Shown here: piece after piece, positions 52,356 through 53,470 of the stretch
Position numbering within the stretch: the stretch's first letter is position 1
How the letters are laid out: the number at the start of each line of letters is the position of its first letter
Assembly: GCF_041886205.1 (NCBI RefSeq)
Contig: NZ_CP169029.1
Direction: 5' to 3' (one strand)
DNA: 64,000 nucleotides
Origin: Escherichia coli
Lineage (GTDB): Bacteria; Pseudomonadota; Gammaproteobacteria; Enterobacterales; Enterobacteriaceae
Translations under genes and position numbers: made by a program
Notes under the pieces: generated by a model
Told to the model about the DNA's origin: nothing
Database searches by the model: none
Seen by the model: the letters and a program-made list of their open reading frames with translations, nothing else

Positions 52356-53470
52356 TTAAACGCCCGGCTCCTTATGCAGTCGACGACATGCAGTGCCATC
52401 CTCACGGAACAGATGGCAACGCTCTGGCGGCAGGCCGATAGCGAAAGTGGCACCTTCTTCTACCAACACCACGTCGTTCTGGCGGTACACCAGGTTTTGA
52501 CGAATGGAAGGGATCTGGATATGGATTTGGGTTTCGTTGCCGAGTTGCTCGACGACCTGAACTTCACCCTCAAGGATGACGTCAGCGATATCACTCGGCA
52601 GTAGATGTTCCGGGCGAATACCCAGCGACATATTGGCTCCAACCTGGACATCACGGCTTTCAACTGGCAGCCAGACTTGCTGACGATTTGGCATCGGCAG
52701 CTCCACCTGCACTTGATCGATTGCGGTGGCGGTCACTTTTACCGGCAGGAAGTTCATCTTTGGCGAACCGATAAATCCGGCGACAAAACGGTCTGCCGGG
52801 TAGTGGTACAGCTCCAGCGGTTTCCCAACCTGCGCCACGCGACCGGCGTCCAGCACCACGATTTTGTCGGCCAGCGTCATCGCTTCGACCTGATCGTGGG
52901 TGACGTAAATCATTGTGCGGCCCAGCCGTTTATGCAGACGGGAGATTTCGATACGCATTTGCACACGCAGTGCAGCATCGAGGTTGGAGAGCGGTTCATC
53001 GAGCAAAAATACGCTTGGCTCGGCTACCAGCGTACGGCCAATCGCCACACGCTGACGCTGACCACCGGAGAGCGCTTTCGGTTTGCGATCCAGCAAATGC
53101 GCCAGTTGCAGCACTTCCGCCACCTGGTTAACCCGTTGGTTAATCACCTCTTTTTTGCACCTGCCAGTTTCAGGCCAAATGACATATTTTCTGCTACTGA
53201 CAGGTGGGGATAGAGCGCGTAAGACTGAAACACCATACCAACGCCGCGTTCTGCTGGCGGAGTGTCATTCATCCGTTTCTCACCGATGAACAGGTCGCCG
53301 CTGGTGATCGTCTCAAGCCCGGCAATCATGCGCAGTAAAGTCGATTTACCGCAGCCAGACGGTCCGACAAACACCACGAATTCACCTTCATGGATATCGA
53401 GATTGATATCTTTCGATACCACGACCTCGCCCCAGGCTTTCGTTACATTTTGCAGCTGTACGCTCGCCAT
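52356..53470 (-). pseudogene. malK: malK maltose ABC transporter ATPase with 1-nt deletion frameshift (or homopolymer sequencing error)
   Basis: N-terminal ORF ends ...LAGAKKR-stop at 53144; remainder continues in +1 frame from INQRVNQ; restoring one A in the A-run at 53151-53156 gives [15 protein letters not shown]. Confidence 0.8.

Follow-up and report, generated by a model that had tools for sequence, protein, structure and literature searches.

A one-base deletion in malK of an Escherichia coli genome is probably an assembly or base-calling error in a seven-A run

Introduction

Is the maltose transport gene malK truly broken in this strain of Escherichia coli, or does the break exist only in the assembled sequence? 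The window (that is, the whole 64,000-nt stretch of contig NZ_CP169029.1 analyzed here) carries a malK gene which lacks a single A within a run of A residues. MalK serves as the ATPase in the MalFGK2 importer and also inhibits MalT, and LamB, which is encoded in the same operon, is the receptor of phage lambda. If the deletion is real, the strain is a natural malK mutant in which maltose uptake, control of the mal regulon, and the level of LamB are altered. The first-pass annotation of this DNA, made from the sequence alone, had considered a real mutation and a sequencing error to be equally likely. Here, we compared the locus with those of close relatives, surveyed the same allele in public genomes, and used a homopolymer run in an essential gene of the same window as a control.

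Results

Structure of the disrupted malK gene

The malK gene is located on the minus strand (52356..53470) and comprises 1115 nts, one base fewer than the 1116-nt gene of its relatives. The missing base falls within an A run of the minus strand that has six A (53151..53156; six T on the plus strand) and that contains seven in all close relatives. On the sense strand, the surrounding sequence reads GGT GCA AAA AAG AGG TGA, with the run extending from 53156 to 53151. As a consequence, the N-terminal ORF (53144..53470, minus strand, 108 aa) begins with the ATG at 53470-53468, ends with AGAKKR, and is closed by the TGA at 53144-53146, directly after codon 108, so that the gene as written cannot be read in a single frame and has to be classified as a pseudogene. 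The remainder of MalK (INQRVNQ...HKEPGV) lies in another frame, where translation and Pfam analysis delineate a C-terminal ORF of 263 aa (52356..53147, minus strand) that starts with the GTG at 53147-53145 and runs down to 52356. The premature TGA and this downstream GTG overlap (GTGA).

Pfam divides the ABC_tran domain between the two ORFs, with profile positions 2-80 assigned to the N-terminal fragment and 82-136 to the C-terminal one. The former includes the Walker A motif and the first half of ABC_tran, and the latter contains the rest of this domain (LSGGQ is present in the translation) together with OB_MalK and the TOBE_2 regulatory domain. The domain set of MalK (ABC_tran, OB_MalK, and TOBE_2) is therefore complete but distributed over two ORFs. 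With one A added to the run, the gene encodes 371 aa that match exactly the MalK of the nearest genomes, whose malK genes are annotated as intact (WP_000179165.1, 371 aa), and the exact intact sequence occurs on at least 1,000 public contigs. Apart from the run, no second lesion was found in the window malK in comparison with close relatives. In an alignment with 6EVA, wlxctx60, LHM10-1, and E24377A, seven T were present in all four relatives and six in the window alone. Thus, the six-A state is a definite one-base difference rather than a chance pattern. The first-pass annotation had described an early end of the N-terminal ORF with the rest of the gene in another frame, a one-base loss in the A run, and recovery of MalK by one added A; its coordinates and its reading of the frames were exact, the loss was confirmed against the four relatives, and the recovered protein is the one that the closest relatives encode.

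Integrity of the surrounding sequence

The genes around malK are arranged as expected for MalK, with the malK-lamB-malM operon divergent from malEFG. Both lamB (50944..52284, minus strand), which follows malK in the operon, and malM (49872..50792, minus strand), the last gene, are intact, as are malE, malF, and malG of the divergent operon (53835..57628, plus strand), which encode the other transporter subunits. The core genes zur, dinF, lexA, dgkA, plsB, ubiA, ubiC, xylE, psiE, and yjbF-H are also intact, and so are the prophage genes of the window, which have the sizes annotated in a related prophage.

The region from 38572 to 64000 is colinear with 6EVA (99.96% identity, 8 SNPs and 2 one-base indels). 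The genomes of wlxctx60 and LHM10-1 are similarly close to the window, and some relatives differ by 7-8 SNPs in approximately 24-25 kb. When the four relatives were considered together, the malK deletion was the sole window-specific indel in 25.4 kb, accompanied by three window-specific SNPs (40711, 41138, and 43817); no Dam or Dcm motifs, which would point to methylation errors in long reads, were seen on inspection of the sequences flanking these SNPs. With regard to other indels, the window has A7 against A6 of 6EVA at 49486, within a SopA-family/yjbI pseudogene; as wlxctx60 also has A7, this is an inherited polymorphism. The indel at 57792 is private to wlxctx60. The window and every relative checked carry the SopA-family/yjbI gene (48062-49643) as a pseudogene, whose A run (49486-49492) has seven residues in the window, wlxctx60, and L028 but six in the remaining relatives that were compared.

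Neither the 25.4-kb core nor the prophage ORFs showed any further homopolymer error, and in the window every run of seven or eight for which the E24377A reference allowed a comparison is correct. The same holds for three other assemblies that carry the six-A malK allele (C41, BS-01, and CRE444), in which the comparable runs are correct and malK alone differs. A further long run lies in a DUF2713 gene (39038-40024; run at 39780-39787), which is intact in the window with a run of eight. A frameshifted allele of this gene with a run of seven was present in all 60 top RefSeq hits and probably occurs in hundreds of genomes; it therefore reflects a natural splitting of the gene, not an error. A paired undercall in C41, BS-01, and CRE444 (malK A7 to A6 together with DUF2713 A8 to A7) was considered and rejected, because the DUF2713 A7 allele occurs in RefSeq genomes of many unrelated submitters and is thus a natural polymorphism.

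Left part of the window

The 5' end of dusA is interrupted by a prophage of approximately 38 kb (~760-38571), and a 5' fragment of the gene remains at 38572-38675. The prophage contains HK97-type head genes together with a Mu-like baseplate and tail. The closest relative, 6EVA, lacks this prophage, which is a mosaic with 97-98% identity to other E. coli dusA prophages, such as those of ETEC H10407 and SW071614. A serine invertase gene (Resolvase and HTH_7 domains) adjoins opposed tail-fiber and tail-fiber-assembly genes (2281-4442), a layout corresponding to an invertible host-range segment of the Gin/Cin type. At the left edge, an IS5-family DDE transposase gene (1-760, minus strand) is cut by the end of the window and occupies the position of the integrase and DinI genes of related dusA prophages, beside the same 334-aa ORF (844-1848). 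A short-read assembly would normally break at an IS5-family element. Since the transposase gene runs straight into unique DNA, the window appears to come from a repeat-spanning assembly, and we infer that it belongs to the long-read or finished assemblies, the class in which, as described below, the artefact dominates.

Recurrence of the six-A allele in public genomes

Exact matches to the 108-aa N-terminal fragment ending with AGAKKR were found on 620 public contigs; for the C-terminal fragment of 263 aa, the number was 885. The corresponding +1 allele occurs on 63 contigs, that is, the -1 allele is approximately 10 times more common. The six-A call is found on at least three synonymous haplotype backgrounds and has therefore arisen, or been called, many times. 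Among the 2,544 RefSeq complete E. coli genomes that share the haplotype backgrounds of the six-A allele, 16 (5 + 11, at 100% identity) have the six-A malK and the other 2,528 have the in-frame gene with seven A. Five submitting projects account for 13 of these 16 genomes, and in three projects the allele is present on two backgrounds each (C51/C41, EC43-EC101/EC77, and CUVET16-321/CUVET16-819). A frameshift shared by unrelated strains of one laboratory suggests an effect of the method rather than biology. The accession numbers of all 16 records are recent, which we take to fit the period of long-read-only assemblies.

Some of the records also have other defects. Among 10 long public contigs with the six-A allele, other mal genes (malE, malF, lamB, or malM) are split in seven. 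In C41 (RefSeq NZ_CP127252.1, L018), the essential plsB gene is annotated as frameshifted by a C4-to-C3 change, which aligns to window position 43970 and is almost certainly an assembly error.

Contig-length profile and comparison with an essential gene

The plsB gene is essential, and a real frameshift in it should be lethal. In the window, it contains an A7 run (44587-44593). The fragment predicted for a plsB A6 allele was found on 127 public contigs and that for an A8 allele on 92 (ratio 1.4), which indicates that errors in A7 runs occur in public data at that scale. We compared the size classes of the contigs carrying malK six-A, plsB A6 as a control for artefact, and four rare alleles as controls for real variation (three MalK missense variants and one prophage protein). 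Contigs of 20-200 kb are the usual product of short-read isolate assemblies. The real rare alleles had 36-86% of their occurrences in this class, with a pooled ratio of >1 Mb to 20-200 kb contigs of 0.0125, as against 2.0% and a ratio of 2.9 for the malK six-A allele and 3.6% and a ratio of 2.7 for plsB A6; these counts were made per database block rather than per genome and are accordingly rough, though the contrast is very large. Contigs below 10 kb held 90% of the malK six-A occurrences, and those above 1 Mb held 5.8%. The malK six-A profile could not be distinguished from that of plsB A6 (odds ratio 1.08, p = 1) and was very different from that of the pooled real rare alleles (odds ratio 229, p = 3e-44). 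If every one of the 15 short-read-size blocks were genuine, real occurrences would still make up less than 1% of the 43 in the megabase class.

A common MalM allele was initially considered as the reference distribution and then dropped, since blocks are classed by their longest contig and this allele is consequently biased towards long contigs; for this reason the rare real alleles were added as controls. The possibility that a real Shigella clone lies behind the peak at 2-5 kb was not supported either: a real S. flexneri MalK variant is found on 2-5 kb contigs with a companion peak at 20-50 kb, and the six-A allele has no such companion.

The two genes differ in one respect. No plsB A6 allele was present among 2,531 RefSeq complete genomes, compared to 16 of 2,544 for malK six-A (p = 3e-5).

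Discussion

An assembly or base-calling error as the favored explanation

Taken together, these results lead us to regard the missing A in the window malK as most likely an assembly or base-calling error. According to this explanation, a run of seven A followed by GAGG would have been called as six, and in the strain both MalK (371 aa) and the maltose system would be normal. Four observations suggest such an origin, namely, recurrence on unrelated backgrounds, clustering by project, concentration in long-read-type and very fragmented assemblies, and behavior like that of plsB. The change is confined to one base of a run relative to all close relatives, with no other lesion in the gene, and it recurs independently in a manner that depends on project and assembly type and mirrors plsB. 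The assessment of the first-pass annotation, which gave both origins the same weight, is accordingly shifted clearly towards error.

One expectation of this explanation is not borne out, in that other homopolymer errors are absent from the window as well as from the BS-01 and CRE444 comparisons. A generic homopolymer error can thus not fully account for the deletion, because the window and three six-A assemblies have the correct length at their other runs of seven or more; it is also contradicted by the absence of plsB A6 from RefSeq complete genomes. The error would rather have to affect this site in particular and arise in certain sequencing or polishing pipelines, and it would not indicate a generally poor assembly. 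It may be strongly dependent on context, since A7 followed by GAGG forms a long purine tract. Directly abutting the A run is the sequence AAC(N6)GTGC (53157-53169, minus strand), the EcoKI-type target, which, if methylated in the strain, could disturb nanopore base-calling at the run. This EcoKI-type site belongs to the malK haplotype of the window, and the more common GGC haplotype does not have it.

A real frameshift with rescue by ribosomal slippage

The main alternative is that the deletion is real and arose by a recent loss of one A through replication slippage, truncating MalK at codon 108. We consider this unlikely. In its favor, the window is free of any other sign of homopolymer error, and changes in homopolymer length are genuine in this clade at unconstrained sites (49486 and 57792). 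The observation of 16 malK and no plsB frameshifts in RefSeq is what selection against lethal frameshifts would be expected to produce, and the predominance of the -1 over the +1 allele, ~10-fold at malK and 1.4-fold at plsB, also argues for a real allele rather than an artefact. Moreover, loss of MalK can be adaptive under glucose limitation: disruption of malK, which encodes an inhibitor of MalT, raises LamB (PMC7863352).

In such a strain, the uptake of maltose and maltodextrin would be defective, the mal regulon would be derepressed because MalT is freed from MalK, and expression of lamB and malM would perhaps be lowered by polarity. The phenotype that the first-pass annotation had predicted for a true malK null fits the literature in this regard, the rise of LamB upon disruption of MalK being documented (PMC7863352). 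As a speculation, the GTGA overlap might allow reinitiation of translation and soften such polarity.

The truncation would probably not be complete. The deletion creates an A_AAA_AAG heptamer (53150..53156, minus strand) in the X_XXY_YYZ phase, with its first base at codon position 3, and a computed -1 slip on this heptamer restores exactly wild-type MalK. Few heptamers in E. coli are as prone to slippage as A_AAA_AAG, which shifts at ~0.3% in the absence of stimulators and at up to ~3.7% when the 3' context is favorable (PMC4066793), and a precedent exists in the related C_AAA_AAA site, which rescued one-base deletions in expression constructs (pDEST17; PMC1851650). On the basis of these values and of the phase of the heptamer, a real malK allele would probably be leaky rather than null, with an expected -1 slip of roughly 0.3-4%. 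The first-pass annotation, according to which the strain lacks MalK if the deletion is real, overlooked that such an allele would not be a clean null, given that in-phase slippage on A_AAA_AAG restores the wild-type protein. A further suggestion is that a real deletion could be self-mitigating, with a low level of MalK made by slippage, a high level of LamB, and the tract serving as a reversible dial on the MalK level; we regard this as very improbable.

Several results weigh against a real deletion and are the reason why we continue to favor an assembly or base-calling error. Contigs of short-read size, on which real alleles are mostly located, hardly ever carry the six-A allele; its contig profile is indistinguishable from that of an error in the essential plsB gene, and the genomes with it group by submitting project although their backgrounds are unrelated. 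Because the mal genes have no second lesion, a real deletion would have to be very recent. In addition, an early frameshift that risks polarity on lamB is unlike the malK alleles recovered from chemostats, most of which are late nonsense mutations or missense changes affecting the C-terminal regulatory domain (PMC7863352).

Programmed recoding or phase variation

It may also be asked whether the six-A malK is a functional device, either a site of programmed -1 frameshifting or an on/off switch based on tract length. The heptamer is in phase, a -1 slip yields complete MalK, and a weak hairpin of 6 bp (UUAACC-AACG-GGUUAA; 53128..53143, minus strand) is located 6 nts downstream of the heptamer, the usual spacing of a stimulator; likewise, tract lengths of both -1 and +1 are present in public assemblies. 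In dnaX, -1 frameshifting is stimulated by a Shine-Dalgarno sequence at a spacing of roughly 10 nts. Upstream of the malK heptamer, no Shine-Dalgarno sequence is present at a stimulatory distance, and the only candidate, AGGUG, ends one base before the heptamer; the sequence downstream does not fold more stably than shuffled sequences (z -0.31 and -0.09). The frameshifted arrangement is also not conserved, as close relatives and 2,528 of the 2,544 RefSeq genomes have seven A in frame. For a contingency locus, a tract of seven bases is short, and the variant tract lengths follow the distribution of sequencing errors, with 2% of the six-A occurrences in contigs of 20-200 kb and a profile equal to that of an essential-gene error. 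We thus consider a functional device extremely improbable; a real malK allele would be slightly leaky and not a designed recoding site.

Implications

If the six-A call is an artefact, as we favor, the malK A7 run at codons 106-108 is an apparent recurrent site of false frameshifts in E. coli assemblies, which affects the 16 RefSeq complete genomes as well as hundreds of public contigs. Annotations of a "malK pseudogene" at this run that lack read support would then provide no basis for inferring loss of maltose use. Tools such as Homopolish and Kastor reportedly address homopolymer errors of this class. If the deletion were real, it would represent a frameshift that creates its own rescue by ribosomal slippage, a modest curiosity rather than a new principle.

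Comparison with known systems

The locus can be compared with three known systems. With programmed -1 frameshifting of the dnaX type, it shares the identical A_AAA_AAG heptamer in the correct phase and a shifted product that is the wild-type protein. The efficiency of frameshifting in dnaX is approximately 50%. In malK, by contrast, a conserved stimulator is lacking, relatives do not share the configuration, and the expected efficiency is only ~0.3-4% (PMC4066793).

Known malK loss-of-function alleles concern the same gene and operon, and the truncation would leave no single polypeptide with the ATPase and the whole regulatory domain. If the window deletion is real, loss of transport together with derepression of the regulon would be expected (PMC7863352). 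The window allele, in contrast to the mainly C-terminal missense or late nonsense changes known to be adaptive, shifts the frame early in the gene and may be polar as well as leaky through ribosomal slippage.

The third comparison is with homopolymer miscalls in bacterial assemblies from long-read, 454, and Ion Torrent data, by which genes are split into spurious "frameshifted" pseudogenes. The malK site differs from these in that no other such error was found in the window and in that it is struck far more often than the plsB A7 run. It resembles them in the loss of one base from a run of seven in a gene otherwise identical to that of its relatives, in the recurrence of the same change in unrelated strains of the same project, in the enrichment in megabase and very fragmented contigs, and in a contig profile like that of plsB.
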